DNA from: Nemertoderma westbladi
Taxonomy: Eukaryota; Animalia; Xenacoelomorpha
NCBI GenBank assembly: GCA_032718475.1
Contig: JAUCBJ010005152.1
Coordinates: forward strand, 1 to 51,445
Length of the DNA stretch: 51,445 bases
Direction: 5' to 3'
This document shows positions 2,374 to 43,133 of the stretch, piece after piece (within the stretch, counting starts at the first letter, position 1; every line of letters starts with the position of its first letter). The notes beneath the pieces are model-generated. The model worked only from the letters and a program-made list of their open reading frames with translations, was not told where the DNA came from and made no database searches. A program made the position numbers and the translations under genes.

Positions 2374-3565
2374 TGTTCGCGCTTTTAGACCTTTAGCAGT
2401 TTAACCTGCCAATTTTAGGTGTCTTCTAGGTTATAAATCGACTTTAGCCTATAACAAGTATTTGATACACATAAAATTACATTAGCCGTAGCCAGCCTAT
2501 GCGCGACCATTCACCCACGGTTAAGGGAGACTGGATTCGGATGCTCTGACCTTATTGCGGTGTAGACTTACTGTACTATTCGATTGATCGTTAATATAAT
2601 ATCTGACAAATATTATTCACTTTCGGGAAATATTAACAGTTCCTTTAGGACGTGGCGCTCTAAGTATGTAAACAGAGTTATGACTTACACTAAACACAAC
2701 GGGATGGCTAATGATTTTCGTATAAAGCGCATTCTTTAGGAAATGCTTTGTTATCTATCACATTCATGCACAATACCGCACACTGCTGCACACTGATCTG
2801 CCGACCTTAACTAATTTTAGTCATATATAAGGAGAACAGCAACTGACACATGTAGGGTCTATGAAATAGCATTCAATTCACTCCAAAACCACTATAATGT
2901 AAGTCGCAATTGCTACAGGTAACCGGTCTCTCTAACCTTCAGTATATCAAGAAGATTGGGGTTTTATGATTATTTATCGATATTCTCCAAATATAACAAC
3001 ATATCCATCAACTTCTAACAATTAATAACCGACAGTAAATAGCAGTCAAATAATGCGGTGAAAGGTATGTATAGTATGATATGATTTACTGTGATATGTT
3101 ATGCGATTTGTATGATAACAGTTATACGTTTCTATAATCAAAGCCGTTCTAAAGTTTGGCTAAAGTCTGAAACACAGAATAATTCCAAAGCCGATGTTCT
3201 GGGCTCAGGAAAAAAGGTAAACAAAGACCATAATGCATTGCGCGATCTTCCGTAGGCTTCTGTACAAGATAAAATGAAAATCGCTCTGATTGGTCGAGCG
3301 AGCCGAACAAAGAAAGCCAAAAAGCTCCACATCGACATATCAGCTGATAGATGTCGTCATCTGAACTACACTGTATTAAGAGTATTTTGGCGTATTGCGG
3401 CATAAAATGGCTTATTATGTCCGCTAAAGTACACATACAGAAAAATTGCTTTTTATGTCCACTAAAACACCTACACAGTAAGAAAACAGCTTTTTATGTC
3501 CGCTAAAACACCTACAGAGTACTTTGCGGGGAAAATGACTAGCTAGATCCGCAAAAGCCTTTACA
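2374..3565 (-). repeat. 3' LTR of the Bel/Pao element (1192 bp)
   Basis: Colinear with 20394-21585 at constant offset 18020; about 15 substitutions and no indels counted by eye; reads TGTAAAGG...GCGAACA on the minus strand. Confidence 0.96.
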
Positions 3566-9590: not shown

Positions 9591-12500
9591 TCACGTTGGG
9601 GAGACCCTGGATGTTGGTCGGATTTGGGAGGTGGTCGTGGGAAGAGTATCTTGCATTCCATAGTTTCCGGAGAGTTCTCTGTCTCTTTCCAGTAAACATA
9701 AACGACCAACTGGGCGATTGAGCTGCTGCGTCTCGAAGACAATTCCCAGTTTCTTAAAGATACGTCGCATGACGACGAGTTCTACCGATCGCACCAAACC
9801 GTCATCTGAGATATGAGTCTCGATGATACGACCTGTCTGCCACCGCTTACGTGGAAGATCTGACTCCACAATAAGGACCATGTCTCCTGCGCTGACGTTT
9901 TCTTGCTGCGCAAACCACTTAGTTCGAAGTTGTAGCGTAGGCAGATAATGTTTTTCGAAATGGTCAGCGAAACGACGGGATAACAACTGCATAAGTTGCC
10001 AAGTTTGCCGGCAGTATTCGTCCCCGTCCGTGATTTCCGATCGTGGGAGCATGGCTACAGGTTTCTTCAGTAGGAAGTGCGCGGGTATTAGCGCTTCCAG
10101 GGAATCGGGACTCGATGAGACTGGCATAAGCGGTCTCTCGTTGAGATAGGCGGCGATTTCCTCCATTAACTTCCGCAAAAGTTCGTCGGTGAGATACGCG
10201 CGGCACGGCACTATAAAGTGAAATGCGGTCTTCACGCTCCTGATTAATCTCTCCCAACTTCCTCCCCACCAAGGGGCGTCGGCGGCGTTGAAGGTCCAGC
10301 TAGACGCTGTTACCCTTAGCTGATCGTCCACCTGTCTTTGGTTCCAATCTTTGACGTAAGCCTTGATTTCATTGTTGGCACCAATGAAGTTCGTTCCCTT
10401 ATCAGATCTCATCGTGTTACTAGTTCCAAAGCGAGCGATCTGTCGGCGTAAGCTCAGTATGAAGCTGTTGGTAGATAGATCATTCACCATATCGAGATGG
10501 ATAGCTCTACAAGTCATACAGACAAAGATGAGACACCATCTCTTGACTATAGTCCTAGCACGATATACTTCAATAGGGCCAAATAAATCCACACCGGTAT
10601 TTGTGAAGGGTGGTTCATAGAAGCTTACTCGTTCCCTAGGTAATTCTGCCTCTCGCTGTGTTAAAGGCCTACTGAATGCTTTCCTACAGGGTATGCAGTT
10701 CCTAAGAACTTGGTTCAGAGCTCTACGGGGTTTATGAAAATAATAGCGAGTTCGAATTTCGCTAAGAACTCATTCTCTACCAGCATGATAAAGCTTACTG
10801 TGAACATCTACAATCATCTTGATTTGTATTTCAAGATTTCTAATGAGTATGGGAAACTTAGTGTCAAAGGATAATGGAGCATTAGTTAGTATTCCTCCAA
10901 CGCGTATTAACCCATCTATCATTGTGCTAGAGAAACGATCCCTTAAGCGCATCTGTGGATTTCTCAACAACAGGAAATATTTATCAGAATCCTCATAGCA
11001 TTGCAGGAGTCTCAGTATCTGCTTATTGGTTTCTTCATGCTCCTGGTAACTGATCTTCTCCTTCAGAAATCTGTCTGATATCTTGTATTTGGGAAGATAT
11101 TTAACAACATGTACCTGCGCAGATGTCAGTGGAGCGGTATCACTAGTGGTCTTCGTCCTGGCGTAGTGATGATGAAAACATCGCTTTAAATATGTAACGG
11201 CCTTACAGAGCCGATTCCAGGAACTATAGTGATGTATCGCTCTCTGCAGGAGGGGTGAGAGTCCCTGCGAGACGTCTGGTGTTCCAGATTTCCAATCTCT
11301 CTCTCTGATTTCCACAACAGACTTATTTGTGGCTGGGGTTTTTGGATCCAAAGCGTCGTCTCCGGAAGTGTGTAGTACAGACAGATCTATCACGGGTTTA
11401 AATAACTTCGATTTACTCGCTCGGGTTTTAGGTTTGACTTTCTCCGCTCCCTTGGCTTGTCTAATCTCTGCCGTGGTAAGATGAGGAGGCCATTCATCCT
11501 CTTCTTTGCTTAGGAAGTCGGGTCCACCTAACCAATCTGGAGTATCTAAACTCCGAGCAATCAATATAACTGGGCTAATAAATCCCAATGGATCGAAATA
11601 AGTGCTCAGGATACTTAGACAAATCCATTTAGTCCGAACTGGATTATCTCGCTGTTTTAGCTGGAAAAACAGGATATCTCTCTCTGTGTCCCATTTCAAA
11701 CCAAGCGTCTTGGTTTCTGGAAGATCGTCCTTGATTAGGTCTAGATCTTTAACTCCTCGGTCTTCTACCGGGATCGATTCCAGAAACTCACGGGAGTTGC
11801 TGGTGAATTTAGTTAATCGAAATCCACCTCTTTTCAAGCACTCTACCGTTCCTTTGGCAACATCAATGGCTTCTTCCACCGATGGGAGGGACTATAAATT
11901 GAAGTCCATGTATATATCCCATTTGATGTTGTCGATAACCTCTTTGGAGAAGGCGTCCCGGTTGTCATCAGCAGTGGTACGCACTACTGAGCAGGCGTTT
12001 GAAGGGCTCGAGATGATCCCAAAAGCCTGGATGGTCATCCAGTACTCCACCGGTTTCTGGTTGAGGTCTCCTTCAGGCCACCACAGAAATCGTAGGCTGT
12101 CTCGATCCCTATCCACCGCCTTAACTTGTAAGAGCATGCCTTCTATATCGGAGGCGAAAGCGATCGAATATTGTCGTAATCTTAAGAGTATTCCCAACAA
12201 GGATTGGAGTAAGTTGGGTCCCGGCAACAACTCGGAGTTAAGGGATTGGCCCATGTAGAGGGCGGAGCCGTCAAATACTACCCGGACTTCGTTGGGTTTA
12301 CCGGGTTTGGGAACGTAATGATGTGTTAGATAGTACGTTCTCTCAGTTATGGGTGTTTCTTCCGGTACTCGCTCCGCATATCCCTTGTCAATGAATTTCT
12401 TCAACTGGGTCTTGTACATCTCCTTAGCTGAAGCATTTGCCATAAGGCGTTTATGTAGTTGCGCAATTCTCTTCTCCGCCAAGAGTCGGTTGTTTATAAA

Positions 12501-15500
12501 ATTGGGTTCTCGCCGTCGGAAAGGCAGACCAATCTCATATCTACCTTGATCTTTAAGAAAACGTGTAGTTGTTTCCTGTATCTGCTTGGCTCTTTCTTCT
12601 TCTACCGATAGGGCCTTATCGTAGGAATTGGGCTCTACAGCCTCTTGAGTAAAGAATCGTACGGCGTGTTCATCACGAGTCTTCGCGTTGTAGCGATCTA
12701 TCACTTCATTCAGTTCGTCGTTGTAATCGACTTGTCCCGCTGGATGAATGAGGTGACATAAGTTCACTTGGTTTTGCCAAGTTTCATTTTCCGTAAGGAG
12801 GTCGATGGTATTCTCCTCATCGAATAGTTGGTGGATATCGTCATTATCTGAGGAGTATGGTGTTCCCTCAGGTGGGTTGTCTCCCTCACTGGTCTCCTCT
12901 TCCCCTGGTAGACTCGTTCTTTGGGTAGCCTTTCCATGAAAGTTCTATGGGAAGGTCCAGTAAAGTACCAACCTACTCTAGTTCTTCCCGCATAGGTTTG
13001 TAATGGTTGCGGTTGAGCAGGCCGTTTCTCCAATGTCTCAAGCGCCTCATGCGCATTTTGGCCGATGAGTATTTGTACTCCAGTGTAGTCTGTGTTGAAT
13101 CTAGGTATCTTATGCTGTTGGGTGAAATCGTCCTCATCCCAGTTATAAGGTTCCACTTGGCTGGTAGCGAAGTTCTTTATCGCCACCATTTTTACTGACC
13201 TTATGCTGTGTTCTCCTAGTTCATCCTGGGGGGTGGACAACGCGCCTACATAGTAATCTGTAGTTACTGTAGATTTCCAAACCTGCATAATTCCTGAAAG
13301 GTTCAACTTAGTTCGGAACTTGGGTTGTCCAGCAAAGATGTCTTCGGCTAGTTCTTTGTCGATGAATGCTCCTGTGCTGCCGGAGTCAAGGAGGGCGTTC
13401 ACTATATAGCTCTTTTCTGACCCGTGGACTCTCAACTGCACTACGGGAAATTCTCGGATTCCTACGTTGGAAGTTGGTGCTTTCCAAGATGGTTGTCAGT
13501 CAGGAATAGTTAGGGGGAGCTCACTATCGGTTTCCTTCTCATACGTAAGTGCTCGATACACTGCGGTATTTATTAGGTAACAGGATTCGTTTTCGTCGGA
13601 GAATTCATCCGTATAGAATCCTTCCATCTCAGAACTTTGGTCAGTGTCGTTCACATCACTGAATTGGACATGTAGTTCGGACTCACTTACCTGACTCGGG
13701 CTGTTTCTTTCGAATTCAGTGTGCCTCAAGATATGATGTTTCGCGCCGCACTTAGCACACCTTGCTTCGGAGTAACAGGTTCGCAGTTAGTGTCCTTGTC
13801 TGAGGCAATTATAACACAACCGCTTATTCCACATGACTTCACGTCTATCTATTAGGGATTTCTTTAGGAATTCATCACACACACTTAAACAGTGGGGCCC
13901 GTCGCACAGCACACATTTTGGTTTGATGTTACTTACCTTACCTTGGGTAACGTTGTGCACACTCGTTCTTTCCTCGGGCTTTCTTCCATGAACTCTCTTA
14001 GGAGACGTAGGAAGAGTTTTTCTTACCTGTTCTCTCATGTCACTGGTTCGAGACTTGAATTTACTTACGTCTTTAGGCGCTTTGTTGACATAGTAAGATC
14101 TTTCAGTGTCTTTCCCGCTGTCCTCCTCTTGGGAGGCCTGGCTTTCGCCGTCATCTGTATAACACGCTGGTGTTACCTTTCTCCTAGAAACGGTTTTCTC
14201 ACTTACCTTATTTTCCGGCGTCTTCTCTCTGGACTGCTTTAGGAGCTGTAATTTTACCTCTCCATCTAAGAATGACATGAGATCAGCCATGGTAGGGTCT
14301 CTCCGTTGTTGTTCCATCATATATAACACTTTCTTGTCCCAGCGTGTACCTACTCCACCCTTTGGTAAAGTAGATGCTACGGCTCCAATATCCATAGAAC
14401 TCTGATATTCATGAGACTTACCTAGCCAATCTAATTGTCTACAGATCTCCTGAATCTCATCGGAAAACTCTATAATCCCGCTGCTAATGAACTTTCGGGG
14501 CGCTACCAATTTTGCATACAAATACCTAGCTATGTTATTCCTATTACCATACCTGATGTTTAGTGTATTCCAAACTTGTCTTAATCCATCTGGATGTCCA
14601 ATAAACTTTAACGCCATTAACTTGGGAGGTCCTTCCAAACACTCGATGAGGAATCTATGTTTCTCTCCATTAGATAGTACAGAGTTCTGTATGTTATCTT
14701 TGTAATATTCATTAAAAGGTAACCATTTCATCTCATCTCCATTGAACTTGACGATCTCTCCCACCTTTACCGCTTGACGGGCTTCGGTTCTAGCCATTTG
14801 ACGCGTAAAACTTTCTTGGGCCATCGTATTATTTAATATCGAGTTATCGGTATATAAATTTCTCGGATTATTATCAGGTCTATATGGAATATCATTGTCA
14901 ACAGGTTTATAATTACCTTTAATAGGGTTTACTATAGTAGTTTCTACTTCACTAGCAGTATAGATGCGTGTAGGCTCCACACCTTGCGCATGAAATACTT
15001 CAGACCTAACAGGTTGACACATTGTTACAGGGGGTGTTGGTATACCCTTTTTTAGATTTACTAACTTATCGCGTTCTAACGTGATACTCTGCTGCACTTC
15101 CTGCAATTCTAACCTACTCTCTCTTACTGTTCCCCTTAACTGTTGAACAGTCCCCTCCAACTCTCGGACCTGCTGGGAGGAGCGTGCCTGATTCTAATCC
15201 ATCTGCCTGAGGAGAATATCCATCCCCCGCCATCGTTCATCCACCCACTCGACCGCCGAAGCGGGAGCCGCCAACATAGTAGCGGGTAGACGAGGGACGA
15301 CGGGTGACAAATTGTTAATGTCTCGCTCGGCGTCCAGGACCGGAGTTGACTGAGGAACTGTCCCACTGGATACAGGTAGTTTAGTACTGTGCAAAGGGAA
15401 TTTAGAGTTAGGTTCTGGAAGTACAGGGGTCTCTATCACAGAAGGGGTGGCTTCGAGAACAGGCCTAATTATTTCAGGCTCATCTACTATAGTAGGGAGT

Positions 15501-17209: not shown

Positions 17210-17339
17210 GTTTGTTTGTACAGTTGTATGCCTACTGCTATAATTACAGTTAAAGCAAGTCTAGTAATTCAGTATCAACTGTTAGCCTAGTAATTAATTA
17301 CCGATATCGTTACTCTATGTAACGTGATATATATACAAT

Positions 17340-17605: not shown

Positions 17606-19068
17606 CAATTATTTTTAAAATAATTGAATTTCTGAATTTTAGGGTTACTTAGTTACTTTACTTTACTTTATTACTGTTATTTAAGCAGTAGTCCAACTGA
17701 TATTAAGACCTAATTGTTGTATGACAGGCCTACTATTTTATAAATCGGTTTGAGTTGATTTATAATATATATATACCCGTTTAATGGGTTTTTTGACAAT
17801 ATTTGAAATAAATGTTATTATTTCTGATAAGGTAAGGAGTCACTTCACAGAAGCTGAATGCTCTCAGTGTAGTGCTACTTATTGGACACTAAAACAAATA
17901 ATTCTAATTTACTAAGTTACTTATTACTACAAATTACGTACAATTACGGGGTGAGATTACAATCTCTAAATAAACACAAAAAATTACACGTACAATTTTT
18001 AGGGATAATTTTACAAGAAATCTACAAACCAGCCTAACAAGGAGTTAGAATTTCTGGTTATTACAAACGGACAGGATACTTCGGTATTTGAAAATAATAA
18101 AGCAGTAGTAAATATATTGCGTTGTCTAGATAGGAAAATACCACCGTCTGACGAGTTATAGTCTCTAGCTTTACAGCTCTATAAGTACTACGTTATGTAC
18201 CCGGAGTGTTCCTACCTAGAAGTTAATTACTGCAGCCAACCATAGCTAACGTGCCTATTAACCACTTTACAACACAAATATACTGCCTACACACTAATTA
18301 CCTTCGGAAAGCACTGTACACTAAACCCTAAATTAAGTACAAGTACTTATACAACAAATAACCAGCAGTTAAAAATACTTGTACAGCTAAAAGAACCACG
18401 GTATCTGCCGGAGTGACCAGAGCATAAAATTTACCTACGCCAAACAGCCCTGATGTAGTACCGGGGTTAATTTAACTATATCGGTATGTATAACAAGCAC
18501 AATTACTGTAGGAATAAACTTGGGGTTGTGTATGTTGCGAATAATCGCATAAACTCTGAATAATAAATATTACGCTACCCGTACAGACTACACAAACAAA
18601 ATACAGACCAAACGCTGGCAGACTACTATCAAGCCTAAATAAACCACAGTATATGCAGACTCCGAAATGGTTAGTTAGTATGCATTCTAACCGAGTAGTA
18701 CGACTTATTCTTTCGGGGGGGGGGGGGGGATTTACCTTACAGCACTGGATGCCCCCATGTTCCTAACTAGTACTTTATCGGACATACACTCTACACACAC
18801 TGCAATCTCTTCAGACTTAACAACAGCCAGACAACAATCCAGCCTACAAATTATTTGTACAATCTGAGCAGGCTTACACGCCTTCTGCTCAATATTAACT
18901 TACAGATAAATAAAACTGACAGAAATAAGTAAAATCCCAATAAAAAACCAGGGCTGCAGTCCCTGATTAAATATCAAGACCTACCGGTATATAATTATCA
19001 CAATCGAATAATACTGATGTACCTGTACTGCGGTAAGTACCGGTTCGGGTGGTTAGGTAGTTAGGCCT

Positions 19069-20318
19069 TGTACGCGCTTTTGAAGACCTTTAGCAGTTTA
19101 ACCTGCCAAAATTTATATGTCTTTTGGTTTATAAATAGACTTTAGAAGTTGACAAATATTTAATACCAATAAACACAACATTAGCAGAAGCCAGCCTAGT
19201 GCGCGTCCATTCACCCGCTGGATATACCCGGGAGACTGGATTCTGAGGGCTTAGATTATTATTGCAGTGTAAGCTTACTGTATTATTCGATTGATCGTTA
19301 ATAAATAATTTCTGACTAATATTATTCACTTTCAGGAAATATTAACAGTTCCTTTAGGATGTGGCGCTCTATCTAGGTAAACAGAGATATGACTTATACT
19401 AATCACAACGGTAAGTAGGTAAGGCTTATGATTCACGTATGAGGCGCATTCTTTAGGAAATGCTTAGTTATCAATCACAATCAGGCACACTACCGGTAAC
19501 ACACAATACTGCTCACTAATTTGCCGACCGTCAATGAATTTTATCATATATAAAGAGAACAGCAACGGACTCATGTAGTGCTTATCAAATAGCATTAAAT
19601 TCACTACAAACCACAACAATATAAGTCGCAATCGCTATATATAACCCGTCTCTCTAACCTGTAGTGTATCAAGAAAATTGGGAAATTTGGGTTCTTTATA
19701 AATGTTCTCCAAATAATATTCAACCAACTAATACAAAATATGACAACAGTAAAAAGCATTAAGACGGTAGGTTAAGATATGATATGACAAGATGTGACAA
19801 GACTGCACTGATAACAGTTATACGCTCTATAATTTAAGCCTACTAATGTTTCTTCTAAAGTATGAAACGAATTGACTCTAGAGCCGGTGTTCCTGGCCTA
19901 GATAGCAACAACACAACGGTATCCCAAAAAACAGTAAGACTGAACACTCCTAGTATGTTCGGCCGAATATCTCCACATCGACAGAAAAAATCGCTCTGAT
20001 TGGCTTAAGCTAAACAAAGAACTACGTGTCCAATGGCCGTTTCCATGTCAGCAACCAGCTGTTAGATGTCATAATCTGAATCATCAACTCTAAGCTGTGT
20101 AAAGGTATTTGGTGCATTGCAGGTTTTTTGCCTTACCATGTCCGCCAAAACACGTATATAGAAGAATGACTTTTATGTCCGTTAAAACACCTATAACGGT
20201 ACCTTGCGGGCGAGGGGAATATATATATAGTTAGAGAGTCTTTTAGAGTATTCCAGCGCCTGGGGGAAACTGGATTGCGAAGCAAAAGGGCCAGTTATAT
20301 CCCACAGAAGCTTTTACA
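19069..20318 (-). mobile_element. Solo LTR of a related subfamily nested in the leader of the Bel/Pao element
   Basis: TG...CA ends; own 5-bp TSD GGCCT (19064-19068, 20319-20323); colinear but clearly diverged similarity to the host LTRs (e.g. GACCTTTAGCAGTTTAACCTGCCAA, GAAATATTAACAGTTCCTTTAGGA, AAAATCGCTCTGATTGG). Confidence 0.92.
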
Positions 20319-20382
20319 GGCCTACTGGTTACCGGTCGACCGGTACTTTTGCCTTTATTGCCTACGTTGCAATAAAGAAAGA

Positions 20383-20393
20383 ATAACTGTTAT
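20383..20393 (-). promoter_or_regulatory. Candidate non-tRNA primer-binding site (ATAACAGTTAT)
   Basis: Abuts the 5' LTR; no TGG start; exact reverse complement of minus-strand ATAACTGTTAT inside the LTR (21135-21145). Confidence 0.45.
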
Positions 20394-21585
20394 TGTTCGC
20401 GCTTTTAGACCTTTAGCAGTTTAACCTGCCAATTTTAGGTGTCTTCTAGGTTATAAATCGACTTTAGCCTATAACAAGTATTTGATACACATAAAATTAC
20501 ATTAGCCGAAGCCAGCCTATGCGCGACCATTCACCCACGGTTAAGGGAGACTGGATTCGGATGCTCTGACCTTATTGCGGTGTAGACTTACTGTACTATT
20601 CGATTGATCATTAATATAATATCTGACAAATATTATTCACTTTCGGGAAATATTAACAGTTCCTTTAGGACGTGGTGCTCTAAGTATGTAAACAGAGTTA
20701 TGACTTACACTAAACACAACGGGATGGCTAATGATTTTCGTATAAAGCGCATTCTTTAGGAAATGCTTTGTTATCTATCACATTCAAGCACACTACCGCA
20801 CACTGCTGCACACTGATCTGCTGACCTTCACTAATTTTAGTCATATATAAGGAGAACAGCAACTGACACATGTAGGGTCTATGAAATAGCATTAAATTCA
20901 CTCCAAAACCACTATAATGTAAGTCGCAATTGCTACAGGTAACCGGTCTCTCTAACCTTCAGTATATCAAGAAGATTGGGGTTTTATGATTATTTATCGA
21001 TATTCTCCAAATATAACAACATATCCATCAACTTCTAACAATTAATAACCGACAGTAAATAGCAGTAAAATAATGCGGTGAAAGGTATGTATAGTATGAT
21101 ATGATTTACTGTGATATGTTATGCGATTTGTATGATAACAGTTATACGTTTCTATAATCAAAGCCGTTCTAATGTTTGGCTAAAGTCTGAAACACAGAAT
21201 AATTCCGAAGCCGATGTTCTGGGCTCAGGAAAAAAGGTAAACAAAGACTATAATGCATTGCGCGATCTTCCGTAGGCTTCTGTACAAGATGAAATGAAAA
21301 TCGCTCTGATTGGTCGAGCGAGCCGAACAAAGAAAGCCAAAAAGCTCCACATCGACATATCAGCTGATAGATGTCGTCATCTGAACTACACTGTATTAAG
21401 AGTATTTTGGCGTATTGCGGCATAAAATGGCTTGTTATGTCCGCTAAAGTACACATACAGAAAAATTGCTTTTTATGTCCACTAAAACACCTACACAGTA
21501 AGAAAACGGCTTTTTATGTCCGCTAAAACACCTACAGAGTACTTTGCGGGGAAAATGACTAGCTAGATCCGCAAAAGCCTTTACA
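20394..21585 (-). repeat. 5' LTR of the Bel/Pao element (1192 bp)
   Basis: Near-identical to 2374-3565; upstream of gag on the minus strand; followed by TSD AATGT. Confidence 0.96.
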
Positions 21586-23309
21586 AATGTGTATATAATG
21601 GCACTAGATGGTGTCAAAACCCTTAGTAAAGCATCGTCCAACCTAAATGGTCAACATTATACCGCAACCAACTTTATCAATAAAATATGGTGTTTTGAGC
21701 TAAAAATCGGTAAAATAAGTATTCCATAAAGGCAAAATTCATGCATGCATCAACAACAAATCATATTTCATGAAATGTAGTTTTCAAAAAGACATCTCAA
21801 ATGCCAAGTCGCAATCTCCAATGCTCAAATGCCAAAAGTGCCACAAGTAGGATTACAAAATAGTGCAGTACAGTCCATATCTCATTCTAGATACCGTTTC
21901 TCAAACTGGGTACCTTTTCTCTTACCTCACTCTTACTAACTCAAACCTGTCTGGTTTACTCAAACCCAACTCAAACTCGCGTAACCACCCACTGTGCACT
22001 GTGTAGCATTCATACAACAAGCTGTCTGTGTTTAATGGCCCACTCGCTTCTGTTATACTCTGCCTACGGGTTTGATGGTCTCCTGCTGTTATAACATTCC
22101 CTAAACTTGATTTGTTTGTGTGTAATTAACTCCAGTAGACAGTGAGAATTAAGTTGCAGACTCAGTGACTCAATTTATTTTTAAATTTCAGAATAAAAAA
22201 AATATATGCTAAATTATAAACTGACGATTTATTAATTTTTTATTACATTTATTAAGTATGTATGACTCATAACATATTAACGTTATTTTACATTAAAATA
22301 TAACCATATAATATAACCAACCAATTTTATAAATTTATTTTAATGTCGCGTATATTTCGCTAATGTTTCTAATGTTTAACTTTAATGTTTTACTAATGTT
22401 TAATTCTCTATTACATCGTCAACACAATTATTCGCAATACATCTGGGTGTGGGTATACCGGGCAAAGGGGCCAGAGAAACGAAACCTCTGTAATTATAGA
22501 CAGGGCCATATTTATGGGAGGGGGGGGGGGGGGGGGGGGTGTTGCGAGGTCTAATTCTTAATTAACCAGTAGATTTTTAAACTGATATGTCTTGTAAGGC
22601 ACCAAATTGACATCAAACAGACAGATAACAGAGCAACAATTTCCCACAACAATATGATCCCAGAATTAAAACTTTCTCTACAAACAGACCGAGCCAGTGT
22701 GGTTTAGTTAACAACATACATTTAGTAAAGCCCACAAAGGAACTGCGTGATTGACATGTCTTTTATGAGACACACGCCAAGCCGGCCTGCCCAGCTTACC
22801 GGCCGGCCAAACATCAGACAGAGGCCCCTTCCCCATGTGGTGCCTCACTACTCAACCAGAGTAATTATCCATCCCGTACAGGAAGAGTAATGCTGAGTAT
22901 GGCACAGTTGGAAGTCAACCTAACTCAAACCATGGCGCCAGACTCTAGTTTGAGTTAGATTGAGCTGGCTGCATCTTTCTGATTTCTCAACTCTTACCCC
23001 AGTCTTACCTACTGAAATTCTCCGTTGACTATCATTAGTAAAAGGTTTGAGAAATGATACCCAGTTTGAGAAATAATATTCAGAATGAGATAGGGACTGT
23101 ATGGTTGTAGGAGTATAAGTCCTTTCGTCTTGTATTGAACTAATAATAATGTATTGTTGGTGGAGTTTCTTCAAAGAAGCCGAACTTCCCCACTGGGCCG
23201 TTGATGTATTTGAATTTTGAACGTTTAGTAGAAGGTATAAAATATGGTTGCGACTCCCATGTTTGTAGGAGTATAAGTATCGGGAGAATAAATGGAAAAA
23301 TTATGTTGC

Positions 23310-23363
23310 GCTTCTTAAAAGTTAATTTGTTATCATCGGATAACAAATTAACTTTTAAGAAGC
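23310..23363. repeat. Perfect 25-bp inverted repeat with 4-nt loop
   Basis: GCTTCTTAAAAGTTAATTTGTTATC-ATCG-GATAACAAATTAACTTTTAAGAAGC. Confidence 0.9.
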
Positions 23364-23399
23364 TAAATTAATTAATCAAAAACTAAAGGTAAGAATTTA

Positions 23400-26300
23400 C
23401 ATACTGTTTTGTACATTTAGGTTCGCCGTCGTCGTTTTCTACTGTCGTCGTCTGAGTAACACTTGTCAATGTGATTGTCTGAGTTACATTTGTCAATGTG
23501 ATTGTCTGAGTTACATTTGCCGTTGTGTTCAACTGTGTTGCCCTTGCCGCAGTGTTCATCTGAGTTGTACTTCCCATTGTGTTCGTCTGAGTTACACTTG
23601 TCAATGTGATTGTCTGAGTTACATTTGCTGTTGTGTTAATCTGTGGTGCCCTTGCCGCAGTGTTCACCTGATATGTACTTGCCATTGTGTTCGTCTGAGT
23701 TACACTTGCCAATGTGATTGTCGGAGTTACATTTGTCATGCGATAGTCTGAGTTACATTTGCCATTGTGTTTATCTGTGTTGCCTTTGCCGCAGTGTTCA
23801 TCTGAGTTGTACTTACCATTGTGTTCGTCTGAGTAACACTTGTCAATGTGATTGTCTGAGTTACATTTGTCATGTGATAGTCTGAGTTACATTATTGTCA
23901 TTTGATAGTCTGAGTTACATTTTTATTGTCATTTGATAGTCTGAGTTACATTTGCCGTTGTGTTCATCTGTGTTGCCCTTGCCGCAGTGTTCATCTGAGT
24001 TGTACTTTCCATTGTGTTCGTCTGAGTTACATTTGCCAATGTGATTGTCTGAGTTACATTTGTCAATGTGATTGTCTGAGTTACATTTGCCGTTGTGTTC
24101 ATTTGTGTTGTCCTTGCCGCGGTGTTCATCTGAGTTTTACTTGCCATTGCGTTCGACCGAGTAACACTTGCCAATGTGATTGCCTGAGTTACATTTGTCA
24201 ATGTGATTATCTGAGTTACATTTGCCGTTGTGTTCATCTGTGTTGCCCTTGCGGCAGTGTTAATCTGAGATGTACTTGCCATTGTGTTCATCTAAGTTAC
24301 ACTTGTCAATGTGATTGTCAGAGTTACATTTGCCGTTGTGTTCAACTGTGTTGCCCTTGCCGCAGTGTTCATCTGAGTTGTACTTGCCATTGTGTTCGTC
24401 TGAGTAACACTTGCCAATGTGATTGTCTGAGTTAAATTTGTCAATGTGATTGTCTGAGTTACATTTAACGTTGTGTTCATCTGTGTTGCCCTTGCCGCAG
24501 TGTTCATCTGAGTTGTACTTGCCATTGTGTTCGTCTGAGTAACACTTGCCAATGTGATTGTCTGAGTTACATTTGCCGTTGTGTTCATCTGTGTTGCCCT
24601 TGCCGCAGTGTTCATCTGAGTTGTACTTGCCATTGTGTTCGTCTGAGTAACACTTGCCATTGTGTTGGTCTGAGTTACATTTGTCATGTGATAGTCTGAG
24701 TTACACTTGCCAATGTGATTGTCTGAGTTACATTTGCCGTTGTGTTCATCTGTGTTGCCCTTGCCGCAGTGTTCATATGAGTTGTACTTGCCATTGTGTT
24801 CCTATGAGTTACACTTGCCAATGTGATTGTCTGAGTTACATTTGCCGTGCGATAGTCTGAGTTACATTTAACGTTGTGTTCATCTGTGTTGCCCTTGCCG
24901 CAGTGTTCATATGAGTTGTACTTGCCATTGTGTTCCTATGAGTTACACTTGCCAATGCGATTGTCTGAATTACATTTGCCGTTGTGTTCATCTGAGTTGC
25001 ACTTGACATTGTGTTTGTCTGAGTTACACTTGTCAATGTGATTGTCTGAGTTACATTTGCCGTTGTGTTTATCTGTGTTGCCCTTGCCGCAGTGTTCATA
25101 TGAGTTGTACTTGCCATTGTGTTCGTCTGAGTTACATTTGCCAATGTGGTGTTCGGACACTTCCCCCCCCCCCCCCCGGATACTTCCCCCCCGGACAGTT
25201 CCCCCCCGCTCAAGTAGGACACTTCCCCCCCGGACACTTCCCCCCCAGACACTTCCCCCCCGCGGACACTTCCCCCCCGACTGTTCTTAACTTCGCACAT
25301 TCGTATTTTTCATTTTGTAAGGTAAACGGACCGCTTGTATCCAGATAAGTTGTATCCAATTTTCCTTTCGTAGCTCAGAAAGTGATCTTTTGCATCCCGA
25401 TTTTACATTTTATATCCAAGTTTTATTTATGGGTTTTATCAATGCAATTACATCGTATTGTTTGCTAATCTTTAAACAATTAATTATATTAGATGACCTA
25501 TAAATTCCATCCCCGGAATGATATACTGTTTTTATTAACTATAGAATTATAATAATTAATTGTTTTAATTATAGGTATTATTATGTAATAGTCTTCTTCA
25601 AATTGTAGCAGATGGGGATGAATATTATTGTTGCAATCAAAATTATACCTCTCTATGGTAAAATCGACATGCGTCGACCTGTATTCTGTGTTCAGCATTG
25701 CATATTGATATACATATTACTACTATACATACTATATAGATATTATACACACTACATATTAAATTTCCTGGTTACTTGCAATATTTATAATAGGATTTTG
25801 TTGAATTATATAATATTGTAGTAATTTATATATTAAATTGGTTAACATTCAATACAGCTCCTACTTTAGGCTTAGTCAATTTATTATCTGATGATACAAA
25901 CATGAATTAATTATTTCAAAGTGGTCTTAAGTCTTTCACCACGGGCACTCAGGGAAATGCCGGGGTCTGGGGGCAATAACCCCCAAGAAAAGAAGCGGGG
26001 GTTTGGGGGCGGCAATTCCCAAGATAAGAAGTGGGGGTTTGGGGGCGGTAGCCCCCAACAAAAGAAGCGGGAGTTTGGGGGCGGCAGGCCCCAATTAAAA
26101 TAAATTAAAAGAATTAAAGGAATTAAAAGAAAAATAAACAAAATTTGACTATAAAAATGTTTCTTTTATAATTTTGAAAAAACTTGTCTAGATACAACTT
26201 GTCCTGTAACCATCTTTAACTTTTGTTTATTGCTTTGATGCACCCAGATTAATTTTAACACTTTAACTGGGGGGGAAGTGTCCGGGGGGCAAGTGTCCGG

Positions 26301-26961: not shown

Positions 26962-28089
26962 GTGGGGCCTTCGCGCAGCACGTGAAATGAGTTAATGCTA
27001 AGTATCAACTCGAAAGGATTATAAAAACATAGGAGAAGATTTTCCCGGAAAACGTTAACCCTCTAGCGGGAGACTGGGTAACTGAAGAAGGAAGGATTAG
27101 TTTCCCTACAAAGCCACAGCCTATGGTCTATTACATATCTACCAAGTTTCCGATTGACGGATCATAAATAACGAAATGTTGGAAGGTTTTCACTTTCATA
27201 CATTTAGCCCTCTAGCGGCATATTAAAGAACTACGGATCGATCACCTTCCTCACAAAGACGAGGCATGTGGTCTAGTACATACCGGTACTGTATATTCCA
27301 AAATTCAGCTTAAATAGATTAAGATCAAGGAATTCGCGAAGGTTATCACTTTCCTACATTTCGCCCTCTAGCGGCAGACTCGAAAACTCCGGACCGATTA
27401 CTGTCCACACAAAGACTTAGGATGTCTTCTAGTACATATATGACAAGTTTCAGCGTAATCAGATCATAAACAACTAAATGGAAGAATAATTTCACATTCG
27501 GGACATTTCGCCCTCTAGCGGCAGACTGGAGAACTGCAGACAGATTAGCCTCCTTTGAAATTTACAGCTAATGGTCTAGTACATACTTCCCAAGTTTCAG
27601 CTTAAACGGATTAAAAGCAAAGAAATGGGTGGCCATTTAATGTTTAGACATGTGGCCCTCTAGCGGGAGACTGGAAAACTTCGGACCGATTACAATCCAC
27701 ACAAAGACTCAGGATGTCACCTAGTACATATATGACAAGTTTCAGCGTAATCAGATCATAAACAACTAAATGGAAGAATAATTTCACATTCGGGACATTT
27801 CGCCCTCTAGCGGCAGACTGGAGAACTGCAGACAGATTAGCCTCCTTTGAAATTTACAGCTAATGGTCTAGTACATACTTCCCAAGTTTCAGCTTAAACG
27901 GATTAAAAGCAAAGAAATGGGTGGCCATTTAATGTTTAGACATGTGGCCCTCTAGCGGGAGACCATTGCACTGATGGTGTCTGAAAGTCTCTTAAAAATC
28001 TCAACTTTTGCTCATATTGATACCTACAAATTTTCAACTTGGCAGCTTTAAATCCGACAAAGTTATTAGCATGTCAAAATCGTAACGAC

Positions 28090-28289: not shown

Positions 28290-28391
28290 TATGAGTCATC
28301 CATCAGCTGGTTTGCAACTAGCCTTTCAGTCAACTTAGATAAGTATATTAGATTCGAAACTGGTCTAAAGTTCTTTAATAGGGTTGTCCTT
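28290..28391 (-). mobile_element. CR1/L2-type LINE RT fragment
   Basis: LKNFRPVSNLIYLSKLTERLVANQL matches the NYRPxSxL..LSK..E non-LTR RT motif. Confidence 0.7.
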
Positions 28392-28794
28392 GGATACCGG
28401 AGGCGCGGGAGGGTTGCCCGTGGAAACCGGATGCGCGTGTGCGTTGCCCATGGAAACCAGAGGCGCGGGAGGGTTGTCCGTGGAAACCGGAGGCGCGGGA
28501 GGATTGCCCATAGAAACCGGAGGCGTGGGAGGGTTGTCCATAGAAACCGGAGGCGCGGGAGGGTTACTCGTGGAAACGGAGGCGCGGGAGGGTTTCCCGT
28601 GGAAACCGGAGTCGCGGGTGCGTTGTCCATGGAAACCATAGGCGCGGGAGGGTTACTCGTGGAAACGGAGGCGCGAGAGGGTTGCCCGTGGAAACCGGAG
28701 TCGCGGGTGCGTTGTCCATGGAAACCAGAGGCGCGGGAGGGTTGCCCATGGAAACCGGAGGCGTGGGAGGGTTGCCCGTGGAAACCGGAGGCGC
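28392..28794. repeat. GC-rich 30-bp minisatellite (about 13 units)
   Basis: GGAAACCGGAGGCGCGGGAGGGTTGCCCGT and variants in tandem; explains the overlapping ORFs on both strands. Confidence 0.92.
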
Positions 28795-29149
28795 AATTAT
28801 ATCTGGTTATATATATATATGATTATTTCTATCAATTTCTTTCCGAAATAATCGTAAGATCCGGATTTATTATTGTTTTGTAAATCTCAAATTTTGTTCG
28901 TGTTTGAGGTTTATTTATTACACGAATCTTCACTGATTCAATAGAAAAATCATTAATGTTGATTGTAATTGAATTTTGTAGTAACTTAAGACACAGTTAT
29001 GGGTTTCACCCAGACCGTTGACCAGACCTCAGACCTTCACTAAGACCGTTTTCATGTTCCCGTCCTCACTAAAAGGTCCACCGAGATAAATATATTCAGT
29101 ACAATGTAAAATAGTCGTTTCCCTCGCTGAAATCGGTTTTCGATCACCT

Positions 29150-31480: not shown

Positions 31481-32196
31481 GTTAATTTGTGTGTCGCTCA
31501 AGACCCGTGCCTCTTCTATGGTAGTTCCCCCTCCCCATTGGTTTACCGGGGGCGTCGTCATAATAAATACCCCTTCCGCCTTCAGTTTTTTAGTTTATAC
31601 TCCTTGCGGGCAGTTTGGTAAGGTGCTGCACAATATGGCACTACAAGCAGTATCAGTACCCAGTACGGCAGTACACAGCACAGGGTTCACCGAAGTATCG
31701 GGTTGCAGTCAATCTGTTTGAGTTGACATTTCCTCACCATAACTACGACATGTTCGAGCAAGGGCGTACCGAAGGGGGTGGTAGTGGTGGTATTTACCAC
31801 CCCTATAAAAATTCAACATATACTGTATATATTCATCAATTAAATATTATTGGTGTTATGGGTTATTGTGAGAGTTCACCCCAGGTCCCGGGATTCAGGG
31901 TCGATATGGTTTGTCGTAAATATACAATTTCTTAAAGTTACAGACTTTATTTTCATTTGCTAAAAGTATCAGCGACAATACATACGGAAATACTACATAA
32001 ATACAAAAACAAAACCTACACCAACCCACAACCTCGGACTCTACACTCTCGATACGTTACTGCCTATATCAAACCCCGTGCACAGAGCTCCAAATAGATG
32101 TAAACCACAGCTGTTTTACCTGTTAAGTGAATACAGGCTGTTAGCGGTAAGCCTAACAATAGGCTGTTAAGTGAATACAGGCTGTTAGCGGTAAGC

Positions 32197-33840
32197 CTAA
32201 CAATAGAGTGACACATTTCCATCTGGGTCCACAATAGAGCTCTGCACAATATCCCAAATCAACTCAACCAATATCCCCAGGATGAGGCAGCCTATGAGAC
32301 GTACTATCACATCTCCCCCCTCCTTAAAAAGTATCGTCCTCGAGCTATCATACCCCCTATCCTGCAATTTGATTGTGAGATGCATATCAGGCCTATCTGT
32401 GTTTGGTGCTGAATACATAGTTTGACCTTGTGTGTGTTGTTGTCCATACGAGTTGTTGTTTGTATTAGATGCACGGGGTTGCATACAGTTACGGCTTAAG
32501 TGCCCCACCCGTCCACAATTATAGCAGTCTCGAGTCTCACTCTGATATTGCTGATAAGGCTGTCGGTTGTACGTTTGATTAACTGCATTGCGTGGGTACC
32601 AGTACGATCTGTCGTTGGTTCTAGAATCTGGCATGTCTTGTCTAAATGGGTTGGTGTTATTATACCTAGGTTGAGGGTCACTAATTGAACTACGTTTTGG
32701 TGCAGTTTGTAACTCAGTTAACTGTTTCTGTAGTTTAACTAATTCTGCTTCAAGATATGAATTATTATTGTTATTATTATTACCTGTTGGGGTAGACTTA
32801 ATGTCAGATCGTGGGTTAAAAGTCTCCCTGTTATTGTCACGTTGTTGCAAGTCCCTAGTATTCTTATTCGTCCAATAATTATTGCCAACAGGGATACATG
32901 TCTCGGTTTTATTTCCCCACCCAGTAGAACCCAAATTTGATTCTTGGAGAAGATACAGTTCTTCGCGTTTTGCACGTCGAACTGCTTCTTCGAAACATTT
33001 TGGCTCAGTAAGTCTAATATTTCTGACTAAATCGGGAGATATTCCTCGAAAAAACATCGGTAAAAGTAATTTTTCCCTCTCTTCGATAGCCATAGATGGA
33101 AATGACTGCTGCCCCAACCTATGTAAATCTGTAGCATAATCACCAACACTTTCCCCTACTCTCTGTCTACGATCTAGCAAACAATTATATAAAAAGGCCG
33201 TGTCTTGTGGGCCAAACTTTGCACGTAATGCGGTACAAATTTCCAAAAAATTTTCCTGGTCATCGGTAGAAAGTTCATCTAATACACGTGCTGCTGCACC
33301 TACAATATAAATTGGGACAATCTTACCAAGCATTTCATTAGTCCACTCACGGAGTTTTGCAATCCTGTTGACCGACTTGATCCATGCATCAACATCCCCA
33401 GTCCCATCAAAAGAATCCGGTTCTTTACGAATTCCATCAGCCATCATTGAGTTTGTCGGTGGGTTCGTTGGCGGGTTCGAAGTCGAGTTCGTTGGCGGGT
33501 TCTTTGGCGGGTTCGAAGTCGAGTTCGTTGGCGGGTTCGAAGTCGAGTTCGTTGGCGGGTTCGAAGTCGAGTTCGTTGGCGGGTTCTTTGGCGGGTTCGA
33601 AGTCGAAACGTTTGTTGGATCCAGCGTTGAATACACGATGGCGTCGAGATTCTCATGGAGAACAGCAGATCGCGAATGTAAATGACTTTCAGTTTGTAGT
33701 GAATTAGATCGAGCACGTTGAATTCTTCGGGTCCTCGAATCGCTAGGAAGTTTGAGACTTGCCGAATTAGCGCGACTACGAGTGTTAACGTTAGCTTTCA
33801 AAGATACTTTAGCTTTTGGTATTCGTGTTGAGGTTGACAT
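32197..33840 (-). CDS. gag: Retrotransposon Gag (capsid + CCHC knuckle), running through the PPT into the 3' LTR
   Basis: Uninterrupted ORF; PDSFDGTGDVDAW, RRQRVGESVGDYATDL (major-homology-like), CYNCGRVGHLSRNC; ends with pol-terminus-like RTILFKEGGDV. First ATG 33840, alternative 33447; TNSTSNPP 24-bp repeats at about 33455-33605. Confidence 0.88.
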   Translation of the reverse strand: MSTSTRIPKAKVSLKANVNTRSRANSASLKLPSDSRTRRIQRARSNSLQTESHLHSRSAVLHENLDAIVYSTLDPTNVSTSNPPKNPPTNSTSNPPTNSTSNPPTNSTSNPPKNPPTNSTSNPPTNPPTNSMMADGIRKEPDSFDGTGDVDAWIKSVNRIAKLREWTNEMLGKIVPIYIVGAAARVLDELSTDDQENFLEICTALRAKFGPQDTAFLYNCLLDRRQRVGESVGDYATDLHRLGQQSFPSMAIEEREKLLLPMFFRGISPDLVRNIRLTEPKCFEEAVRRAKREELYLLQESNLGSTGWGNKTETCIPVGNNYWTNKNTRDLQQRDNNRETFNPRSDIKSTPTGNNNNNNNSYLEAELVKLQKQLTELQTAPKRSSISDPQPRYNNTNPFRQDMPDSRTNDRSYWYPRNAVNQTYNRQPYQQYQSETRDCYNCGRVGHLSRNCMQPRASNTNNNSYGQQHTQGQTMYSAPNTDRPDMHLTIKLQDRGYDSSRTILFKEGGDVIVRLIGCLILGILVELIWDIVQSSIVDPDGNVSLYC

Positions 33841-33872
33841 CCAAGGAACGGTAGCCGCTTGTCGATAAACAC

Positions 33873-33890
33873 CTCCCGGACGGGCCCCCA
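33873..33890 (-). promoter_or_regulatory. tRNA-Pro primer-binding site
   Basis: TGGGGGCCCGTCCGGGAG, 2 nt after the 5' LTR; 16/18 match to the canonical Pro PBS TGGGGGCTCGTCCGGGAT. Confidence 0.88.
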
Positions 33891-34485
33891 CATGTGAGAG
33901 TTCACCCCAGGTCCCGGGATTCAGGGTCGATATGGTTTGTCGTAATTATACAATTTCTTAAAGTTACAGACTTTATTTTCATTTGCTAAAAGTATCAGCG
34001 ACAATACATACGGAAATACTACATAAATACAAAAACAAAACCTACACCAACCCACAACCTCGGACTCTACACTCTCGATACGGTACTGCCTATATCAAAC
34101 CCCGTGCACAGAGCTCCAAATAGATGTAAACCACAGCTGTTTTACCTGTTAAGTGAATACAGGCTGTTAGCGGTAAGCCTAACAATAGGCTGTTAAGTGA
34201 ATACAGGCTGTTAGCGGTAAGCCTAACAATAGAGTGACACATTTCCATCTGGGTCCACAATAGAGCTCTGCACAATATCCCAAATCAACTCAACCAATAT
34301 CCCCAGGATGAGGCAGCCTATGAGACGTACTATCACATCTCCCCCCTCCTTAAAAAGTATCGTCCTCGAGCTATCATACCCCCTATCCTGCAATTTGATT
34401 GTGAGATGCATATGAGGAGGCCATGAGGAGGTAAATTGCGGACATACAAGGTATCAGATAGTATTTTTAGGTCTATCTTTTACCT

Positions 34486-41033: not shown

Positions 41034-42453
41034 ATCTCTAAGGCCTGAAAGTTATTTGTTAATTGTTATTTTTTAAACAGCTTCATAATGTAACTCCTCC
41101 AGTAAAGGTCACTAGAGGGATATCTTTCGTCAGGTGGGTGAGATAATCGAAAAACCCTTTACGATTCTTAGGTGATTCCCTAGTAGAATGCCTACCTCCC
41201 TTCCCACTTGACTTCCGGTTTCGCTCAGGGAACCTGGTGTCTCCGGTTAACCAGTGGCCGGTCGAGGATATGCGGTAGACCCCGAATCAGTGTAGCAAAT
41301 AAGAGGGATCAGTTTGACTTATAATATAATTGGCATTTTACTAGTTAATAGCTAATATCTCTCACCAATAATAGCTATTGCATAATGCACGTAAGGTGCG
41401 AATGAACGTAATACCAATAACACAATAATAATCTATAATAAATTAATATCCCCCAAATTGAACCTCACATTTTTGTGTCTCTGAACCCTAAGATTTGGTG
41501 AAAATCTTTTTTTGTGCTACTAAACATCGTCTGGACTGTATAAGAATAACCAAACCTAATATTTTCAACAAACAAACATTCTTCTGAACAAATTTTGCCT
41601 CAAATGCTCTGGAGCCTTTTTAGATCAAAAAGGCACCAAAAATGGTTTTTTTTTGGGCCTTTTTGATATAAAAAGGCCCCAGGGCATTTCCACCCAAATT
41701 TGTTCCGAAGAAATATGGAGAAAGGTATTCTTAACAAGTGTACAAAATTTCAACTCATTTCAGATAAAATTGGCAGAGAAATAGCCCTTTTCATGAAAAA
41801 CCGTCATATAGATGTCTTTTATATAAATACATAATAAACAGTAACCCCATAGATGGAAACTACATAAAATTTCAAACTGAAATTGTTTATTACATTATTT
41901 TATAGTTGTTCAATGTAAACCCTGTAAGCGATAACCAAGTATTAAATAAAAATACGTGACTATTTATTCAAATCTACTAAATATTCAAATTCTACATATT
42001 GTTATTGTTGGAGTAGGGCCTGTATTTATTCACCTAGAATCTTATAAGTCTATAAGTTATGAATAATTTAACTTTTAATCCGAATAATTTAACTTTTTTT
42101 CTTTACTAAAGTTCCAGAAGGAATATTAAATGTTTCTGCAGCGTCATATAAACAGATAACTAGTAAAACAACGTTTTAGCAATTTACCGTGAGAGCCTTT
42201 TTATGAAAAGGGCCCCGTACAATTGTAAATTATAGTGCTGTTCTAAGGCTTTTCAAAAATCAGACTAGCTCTTAAGTTTTGGGTAATGACTTGAATTTGA
42301 GAAAACTGCTTGCAGATTTGAAATCTACATTAAATTCGGTACTTGATAGAATAAAAAAAGTTTTTTGTCAATTTCCAATATAGGGGGGTGCTACCCCCTC
42401 CCCCCCTTATGTTGTTCGAGTATGAAATATATAACGAAAACTTATAATTTTAG

Positions 42454-42567
42454 AATGCGCGGATTCCAATGATGGATGCCCCGGTTGGGCGGCAGCAGGT
42501 GAATGTGGATCCAATGCGGTCTGGATGCTCCCCAACTGCCAACTCTCCTGTAACCAGTGCAACCCAG
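42454..42567 (+). CDS. ShK (ShKT) domain exon, phase 1-1
   Basis: After TTTTAG: (E)CADSNDGCPGWAAAGECGSNAVWMLPNCQLSCNQCNP, six Cys with the C.D...C..WA..GEC..N..WM...C..SC..C ShK pattern; the phase-1 donor reads GC (CAG|GCTGGT). Confidence 0.88.
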
Positions 42568-42580
42568 GCTGGTTTCGTGT

Positions 42581-42790
42581 GAAGTTAGGACAATTCGTAC
42601 GCGGAAAATTCGTACCGGACAATTCGTACCCGGAAAAATCGTACCCGAAATTTTTTTATGATGAGTACGAATTGTCCGGTACGAATTGTCCGGGTAGGAA
42701 TTGTCCGGGTACGAATTGTCCGGGTAGGAATTGTCCGGGTAGGAATTGTCCGGGTGTAGGAATTGTCCGGGTACGAATTGTCCAGAAACC
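42581..42790. mobile_element. Small Mutator/foldback-like MITE with GGACAATTCGTACCC arrays
   Basis: Inverted 15-bp unit arrays; ends GAAGTTAGGACAATTCG / CGAATTGTCCAGAAACC; imperfect 9-bp flanks GTTTCGTGT vs GCCCCGTGT. Confidence 0.7.
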
Positions 42791-43133
42791 GCCCCGTGTG
42801 TATCGTAGCAGCTTTATTTACTTTTATCAAAGTCCTGGCACGTGAGTAAAGTCTCTATTATTCGTGGTATTTTCTCCCGACTCTACTTCCATCATTAAAA
42901 CAACCTATACTCTATTGTAAAGTAAAGCAGCAGAATAAAATTATGAGAGCGCGTGCCTCTTTATGTAAAGGTCCGAAATGGGCGCATTTGGGGTGATAAC
43001 CCAATAATGTTAAAGTCAACGTTACAGTAGATTGCGCTTTTTGTTGATGACGCACTATTGGACCAATCGAGGCATTGATTGTTTGGTGTTTTTTCTTTTT
43101 CCTATTTATATCGATAAGTCATTAAATTATTAT

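Follow-up and report, generated by a model that had tools for sequence, protein, structure and literature searches.

We analysed a stretch of 51,445 nt of Nemertoderma westbladi DNA (contig JAUCBJ010005152.1, referred to throughout as the window), whose minus strand carries a retrotransposon of the Bel/Pao class with two long terminal repeats (LTRs). The 11 bases directly behind its 5′ LTR exactly match the reverse complement of an 11-base block inside that LTR, no site for the 3′ end of a transfer RNA (tRNA) adjoins the LTR, and a sister family has the LTR block unchanged in its own LTR. We propose, as a credible if still tentative candidate and the likeliest single mechanism, that the two blocks are a self-primer and its binding site, with which the element would start reverse transcription from its own transcript.

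The whole element lies on the minus strand and spans 19212 bp, or 17957 bp without a solo LTR nested in its leader (Table 1). The LTR boundaries given in the table have an equally good alternative, in which the LTR is one base longer and is flanked by a 4-bp duplication, CATT, the identity between the 5′ and 3′ copies reaching 20393. A purine-rich run, GGGAGCGG, stands directly before the 3′ LTR (3573-3566). For the homologue search, pol was translated through its in-frame stops, with X at the stops, and 1068 homologues were retrieved at E ≤ 1e-10, the best of them just 30-44% identical. These bear the domains Peptidase_A17, RVT_1, Integrase_H2C2, rve and DUF5641, and the occurrence of Peptidase_A17, Integrase_H2C2 and DUF5641 in them, together with DUF1759 in gag, identifies the element as Bel/Pao. 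It has the gag and pol domains of the Belpaoviridae, in the order protease, reverse transcriptase, RNase H and integrase, and its polymerase is not of the chromovirus type of Ty3/gypsy elements that marks members of the Tf1/sushi group.

Two further coding regions lie within the element: a 688-aa open frame in phase ahead of gag (17260-15197, minus strand), and about 4.2 kb of open frames, broken by stops, after pol (7899-3647, minus strand). Neither gave a Pfam match or a usable ESM Atlas match, and an env-like or other captured gene might conceivably be encoded there. The exact 26-base pattern of the LTR end had 0 matches in metagenome, viral and genome contigs, and no relative of the integrase protein was found in viral contigs.

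The nested solo LTR belongs to a sister family and was inserted 70 nt into the leader, where it is flanked by copies of AGGCC at 20323-20319 and 19068-19064. Contigs in the DNA runs X2 and X4 join 19061/2 to 20317/8, which corresponds to the empty site, and sibling copies without the nested insertion must therefore exist.

Table 1. Coordinates of the element, of its putative priming blocks and of other features in the window, with the basis for each.
Feature	Position	Strand	Basis or remark
Post-LTR 11-mer, sense ATAACAGTTAT, predicted primer-binding site	20383..20393	minus	adjoins 5′ LTR, offset 0
LTR 11-mer, sense ATAACTGTTAT, candidate self-primer	21135..21145; also 3115-3125 (3′ LTR)	minus	exact match
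5′ LTR	20394..21585	minus	1192 nt, TGT...ACA; offset comparison and BLAST against 3′ copy, 98.7% identity
3′ LTR	2374..3565	minus	1192 nt, TGT...ACA; 98.7% identical to 5′ LTR
Target-site duplication ACATT	21586..21590 and 2369-2373	minus	flank sequences
gag	15193-13790	minus	DUF1759 (Pfam)
pol	13495-9594	minus	DUF5641, weak Peptidase_A17 and Integrase_H2C2 (Pfam)
gag and pol region	9594..15193	minus	Pfam and domains of homologues
Nested solo LTR of sister family	19069..20318	minus	77% identity over LTR positions 393-1192; duplication AGGCC
16-nt island CGTATAACTGTTATCA holding the LTR 11-mer	21133..21148	minus	identical in sister solo LTR (alignment, list of exact runs)
CCAATCAGAGCGATTT block, CCAAT-box-like	21298..21313	minus	conserved in both LTR families
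Second LTR site AACTGTTA	20654..20661	minus	complements post-LTR positions 2-9; inside 25-nt exact run common with sister LTR
TATATAT box, putative alternative promoter	20843..20849	minus	conserved in both LTR families
Leader hairpin, 9-bp stem, 7-nt loop, AATAAA in 3′ arm	20353..20377	minus	minimum-free-energy fold
Perfect 14-nt palindrome ACCGGTCGACCGGT in leader	20331..20344	minus	next to hairpin
Neighbouring small LTR element, ~2.55 kb, 526-nt LTRs	31867-34418	minus	TGG-type site 2 nt after 5′ LTR
Tandem array, period 27 nt	23328-25140		beyond 5′ LTR
Tandem array, period ~147/292 nt	27182-27939		beyond 5′ LTR
Tandem array, period ~30 nt	28338-28823		beyond 5′ LTR

Two complementary blocks at the end of the 5′ LTR

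Since the 5′ LTR ends at 20394, the post-LTR block adjoins it at offset 0, and over all 11 bases it is exactly reverse-complementary to 21145-21135. On neither side can the duplex be prolonged, since T21146 stands opposite T20382 and C21134 opposite A20394. Within it, T21135, at the 3′ end of the LTR block, pairs with A20393 directly behind the LTR, and an extension from this end would copy 20394, the terminal base of the LTR, first. The LTR block is also present in the nested solo LTR, at 19821-19811. That the 5′ LTR and the bases next to it are complementary in this way (21145-21135, and 3125-3115 in the 3′ LTR), that pairing ends at exactly 11 nt on both sides, that the 11-mer is intact in the diverged solo LTR and that no TGG-type primer site follows the 5′ LTR had all been put forward in an earlier note on this DNA, as had the assignment to Bel/Pao; each of these statements held, the last through DUF1759, DUF5641 and the domains of the homologues.

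The conservation of the LTR block stands out from its surroundings. The sister LTR agrees poorly with the first half of the LTR (22-78% identity per 40 columns), where the two longest runs of exact identity are the 16-nt island CGTATAACTGTTATCA and a block that contains CCAAT.

The bases behind the LTR offer no ordinary primer site. TGG is absent from the first 188 leader bases (the 75 before the nested solo LTR and the next 113 after it), and the site for the 3′ end of host tRNA-Arg or tRNA-Gly that is given for Belpaoviridae (PMC8742986) is not present. There is no tRNA gene in the window, and Rfam gave no match at E ≤ 1 across 18900-21700. Ordinary primer sites are recognisable in this genome, as follows from the TGG site at offset 2 in the neighbouring small LTR element, which we take to resemble a tRNA-Pro site. 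The single gag-like frame of that neighbour (Retrotrans_gag, zinc knuckle) extends into both of its LTRs.

Short contigs of two DNA runs reach a summed depth, which is not a copy number, of ~1.1 million where the LTR ends and of ~45,000 across the leader, compared with 28.9 in unique flank. Cover by X5, which may be an RNA run, is thin or missing over 21062-21343 and 19746-19933, and no weight was given to it. Among the loose ends listed at the LTR end there was no dominant alternative continuation (agreement 0.38-0.57); together with the high leader depth, this makes the leader appear to be the family's own, and the post-LTR block accordingly appears to belong to the multiplied family. Its sense positions 1-7 vary in ≤6% of the depth. 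An imperfect 6-bp extension of the duplex, seen in the window copy, was rejected as a family feature, the leader positions it uses differing in 81-83% of the depth.

To gauge chance we used dinucleotide shuffles of the LTR as a null model (n=20000). A complement of at least 11 nt was reached at offset 0 in 18 shuffles and at offsets 0-5 in 76, while the measure applied to plant elements in the excerpted part of PMC6317226, at least 10 bp of complementarity starting 0-5 bp after the 5′ LTR, was reached in 288, corresponding to ~1.4% false positives at this LTR length. There are 4 occurrences of ATAACNGTTAT in the window, where 0.11 would be expected, a count that 0 of 100 shuffles reach; three of the four are homologous LTR copies. 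By these counts the complementarity is real and unlikely to have arisen by chance alone. An AT-rich near-palindrome that merely recurs, for reasons unrelated to priming, is to our minds a very unlikely explanation, with the shuffle counts at offset 0, the excess of ATAACNGTTAT (homologous copies included) and the location of the LTR block inside the conserved island all speaking against it. What it can claim is that many windows were screened, so that a 1-in-1000 event will turn up somewhere, that the shorter pattern AACTGTTA is just mildly enriched in the window (8 matches against 3.2 expected, with 2 of 100 shuffles reaching 8), and that the imperfect extension of the duplex falls on the variable leader positions mentioned above.

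Other Bel/Pao families and known systems

We aligned the window Pol with 25 of its homologues, and the alignment retrieved 77 metagenomic loci, to none of which the window LTR shows DNA similarity. The 5′ LTR end could be fixed, via self-repeats or sibling loci, in seven families (L018/L019, L023, L026/L028, L031, L047/L051, L049/L054 and L059/L060). Four of these show either a target duplication or ends of the TG...CA type; for L026/L028, L047/L051 and L049/L054 the ends are less certain. TGG was found at offsets 0-5 in none of the seven families, the three with less certain ends included, and several of them show TTCGAA-like stretches just past the LTR. As TGG is missing in all seven, the absence of a tRNA-type site is not by itself evidence for self-priming, and it suggests that Bel/Pao priming is poorly understood in general.

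Six of the seven families have no significant self-complement. In the seventh, L059/L060 (L059 1-7204, L060 1728-8656), the element is intact, with a single 2150-aa gag-pol frame that contains all Bel/Pao domains, and two insertions fix the limits of its LTR. Its post-LTR GTAAAAACT complements AGTTTTTAC at LTR 357-365 of 456, that is, over 9 nt at offset 0, a result reached in 31 of 5000 shuffles at offset 0 and in 123 of 5000 at offsets 0-5. The block starts at the A of TCAGTT, an initiator motif, and ATTAAA follows 13 nt behind it, with ~100 nt left to the end of the LTR. This compact, Tf1-like layout makes it a candidate self-primer, with a duplex of 9 bp, below 10; one match among seven families is on its own only marginal. 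No complement of at least 9 nt was found in L050/L055, the sisters of L059/L060. In L050 (430-520), the repeat shared with the 3′ end starts right after a non-repeat CCAAT...TATATAAG stretch.

In a FastTree phylogeny of 53 Pol rows, the window element was placed on a long branch with L022, L053, L070, L064 and L072. A blind inverted-repeat scan of these five loci fixed no LTR end; its matches were all ≤12 nt, and none of them followed a terminal CA or fell beyond sequence that is likely to be coding.

Self-priming has been described for Tf1, Tf2 and Tj1 and implicated up to vertebrates (PMC4600332 and PMC5341516, both in excerpt), and self-primers have been predicted for the plant lineages Tcn1 (gypsy) and TAR (copia; excerpt of PMC6317226). 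As far as these excerpts go, Tf1, Tf2 and Tj1 resemble the window element in that they have no tRNA site, in that an LTR block complements the bases right past the LTR and in that the 3′ end of this block faces the first post-LTR base. They differ from it in class, the Tf1/sushi group consisting of Ty3/gypsy chromoviruses and the window polymerase being Bel/Pao; in the window element, a start site, a cleavage and a structure resembling the U5 inverted repeat, as in the Tf1 type, would at most be putative. In the plant lineages, self-primers were predicted by the same purely computational measure that picks out the window element; these lineages belong to another superfamily and host kingdom (PMC6317226, in excerpt).

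According to the ICTV profile of the Belpaoviridae, these elements are primed by a host tRNA (Arg or Gly), their genomes measure 4.2-10 kb and their LTRs 0.2-1.2 kb (PMC8742986). The window element shares with it the DUF1759 gag, a pol with Pao peptidase, reverse transcriptase, integrase and DUF5641, the LTRs and the purine-rich tract, and departs from it in the missing TGG site, in its extra frames and in its size, since 19.2 kb (17.96 kb without the nested LTR) lies outside the range given and is roughly double the size stated for Bel/Pao; with 1192 nt, its LTR just reaches the upper limit. The literature on Bel/Pao primer sites was of little help: the excerpts of PMC13524379, which concern gypsy errantiviruses, and those of PMC3286476, PMC8220671 and PMC5443660 contain nothing useful on them, and PMC3118150 and PMC12440569 do not mention them. 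No paper proposing Bel/Pao self-priming was found in the open-access literature searched.

Start site, primer and competing explanations

If the block pair does act as self-primer and binding site, the following steps would be needed. The element's own transcript would start at or anywhere upstream of 21145 and, through its copy of the LTR block, base-pair with the post-LTR block; once the RNase H of the element had cleaved behind 21135, minus-strand DNA would be primed from 20394 by the released 3′ end, as in fission-yeast Tf1 and Tf2. A Tf1-type element is expected to show an LTR complement of at least 10-11 nt at offsets 0-5 past the LTR, and the window element has 11 nt at offset 0; the self-primer duplex of Tf1 is likewise 11 bp. 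The energy calculated for the duplex of the two 11-mers is -10.1 kcal/mol, and the predicted pair probability is 0.68-0.999 for an RNA starting at 21145 and 0.59-0.75 for one starting at 21180.

Motifs in the LTR suggest three promoter candidates: the CCAAT block at 21313, ~60 nt downstream of which lies a weakly TATA-like or initiator-like sequence; ATTATAG before the LTR block; and TATATAT at 20849, which by the usual consensus rules would be the best of the three. The last is followed, ~30-35 nt downstream, by TCAGT (20816-20812), is preceded, as is the pair as a whole, by ~120 well-conserved bases, and opens a region of high conservation that continues to the LTR end. The earlier note had inferred that transcription may start at 21145 and self-prime, with the caveats that no clean TATA box lies ~30 nt upstream of 21145 and that TATATAT (20849-20843) offers an alternative. 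The caveats are justified, and the proposal itself stands in part: complementarity and geometry fit it, and a rightly placed promoter motif for a start at 21145 was not found. In Tf2, a second, downstream start site gives rise to an RNA that lacks the self-primer and is not reverse-transcribable (PMC5341516, in excerpt), so that a downstream TATA box alone is no contradiction.

A number of observations weigh against self-priming. The best conserved promoter-like pair, TATATAT/TCAGT, lies ~330 nt downstream of the LTR block, and a transcript driven by it would carry the block only in the unique 3′ region (U3) of the 3′ LTR. At 21145 itself, the TATA-like ATTATAG begins just 13 nt upstream and the surrounding bases (ACGTATAAC) do not fit the initiator consensus; for RNAs starting further upstream, at 21225 or 21251, the predicted pair probability falls to 0.01-0.02. 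The stretch after the block (~21133-21090; X1 depth ~400-500) is the least conserved part of the LTR, which is unexpected of the repeat and unique 5′ regions (R-U5) that would have to lie there. The pairing partners are 752 nt apart, the LTR block being situated 440 nt into the 1192-nt LTR, whereas the Tf1 block sits at the mapped 5′ end of the RNA, close to its site (as excerpted in the sources on Tf1 cited above). The block is moreover a near-palindrome, as the earlier note had warned, with 5+1+5 self-complementary bases, and consequently each block also matches the other as a direct repeat over 10/11 bases, a picture that a protein site common to both or an RNA kissing site would equally produce.

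Variation within the family adds to these points. At position 8 of the post-LTR block (20386, plus-strand A>T), a variant accounts for 28827 of 57913 depth in X1 and for 33752 of 56837 in X2 (50-59%), and if the LTR block is fixed, half of the family would be left with 7+3 paired bases. Minor variants of ~5-6% occur at sense positions 1, 5 and 10, position 9 differs in one contig of organism B, and position 11 in another. A covariation of the LTR with position 8, if present, would be strong support for self-priming. The window copy is itself defective, as its pol contains in-frame stops and reads YMDF, followed by a stop, at the position of the YxDD motif of reverse transcriptase. Lastly, a comparable complement was found in just one of the seven other families, L059/L060, with which the window Pol does not group in the tree; given these separate positions, the trait, if both self-prime, is not shared by descent.

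We hold it possible, though short of probable, that self-priming arose at least twice in Bel/Pao, in the giant, abundant family of the window and in the compact L059/L060, and that all three superfamilies of LTR retrotransposons have escaped the host tRNA. Self-priming in the window element, if true, would extend the Tf1 mechanism to a third LTR superfamily and be new for Bel/Pao; it would free the family from defences that work through tRNA fragments, and explain why annotation pipelines based on tRNA complementarity miss the primer sites of such elements.

Foremost among the alternatives, and in our estimate unlikely, is that the post-LTR block binds a host primer, for example a tRNA half, a fragment from within a tRNA or some other small RNA, in which case the LTR block would be a regulatory or protein-binding palindrome of U3 and the match would stem from palindromy plus chance. 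The 5+1+5 structure of both blocks and their 10/11 direct repetition agree with this, as does the location of the LTR island between the TATA-like ATTATAG and TCA, which looks promoter-proximal. Just positions 1-7 of the post-LTR block are nearly invariant, as for a short binding site. Non-canonical primers seem common, judging by the seven families, none with TGG and six without a significant self-complement, and half-tRNA primers have a precedent in copia-type elements (PMC6317226, in excerpt). Such a primer would leave both the exact abutment and the complementary centre base as coincidence, for which the shuffle test gives ~0.001, and the half-frequency variant at position 8 would be hard to keep alongside a fixed host primer. 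Furthermore, an AT-rich 3′ end like ...AACUGUUAU is unlike that of a nuclear tRNA.

Distinctly less likely is a long-range contact between the 5′ and 3′ parts of the RNA. Here, transcription would start after TATATAT, the block would be present only in the 3′ U3 and would pair with the leader beside U5, joining the ends of the RNA, and another primer would be used. Such blocks are familiar from Ty1 (CYC5/CYC3) and from the two-part primer site of Ty3, both primed by tRNA-iMet, in which complementary blocks lie by the primer site and in the 3′ untranslated region or U3. The window element resembles them in having short complementary blocks near the primer site and in U3, and the conserved TATATAT/TCAGT downstream of the LTR block, the high conservation from there to the LTR end, the retention of the block in the 3′ LTR and the unpaired state of the post-LTR block in the predicted fold of the TATA-driven RNA are all compatible with such a contact. 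Unlike in Ty1 and Ty3, however, the block of the window element occupies the primer position itself, without a tRNA site; adjoining U5, where the primer must sit, it would need to serve two partners. No primer was identified for this scheme, and the position-8 variant would weaken the pairing of U3 with the leader as well.

The least probable explanation, to which we give little weight, is self-priming from the second LTR site, AACTGTTA (20661-20654), pairing with post-LTR positions 2-9, with the LTR ending at 20393 and a 4-bp duplication. This 8-nt complement belongs to a 25-nt run identical in the sister LTR, the second-longest exact run shared with it, the LTR identity does reach 20393, and the site lies downstream of the TATA box and would therefore be present in the TATA-driven RNA. 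A complement of at least 8 nt at offsets 0-5, however, arises in ~15% of the shuffles (2992/20000), the predicted pair probability is ~0.02, and the position-8 variant reduces the pairing to 6 bp. Another copy of the 8-mer is found at 17277-17284 (TAACAGTT in element sense), 17 nt before the 688-aa frame.

Leader structure and other features of the window

The leader behind the post-LTR block is predicted to fold into a hairpin, the stem of which is kept in contig variants with other loops, one contig of X5 being without one base in each arm. The palindrome ACCGGTCGACCGGT next to the hairpin could be a dimerisation site.

Outside the element, the region beyond the 5′ LTR contains the three tandem arrays and the small LTR element listed in Table 1. 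An open frame at 42435-42845 encodes a ShK-like domain (E 1.3e-7), and another, at 48692-49063, a short reverse-transcriptase fragment (RVT_1, E 2.4e-5).

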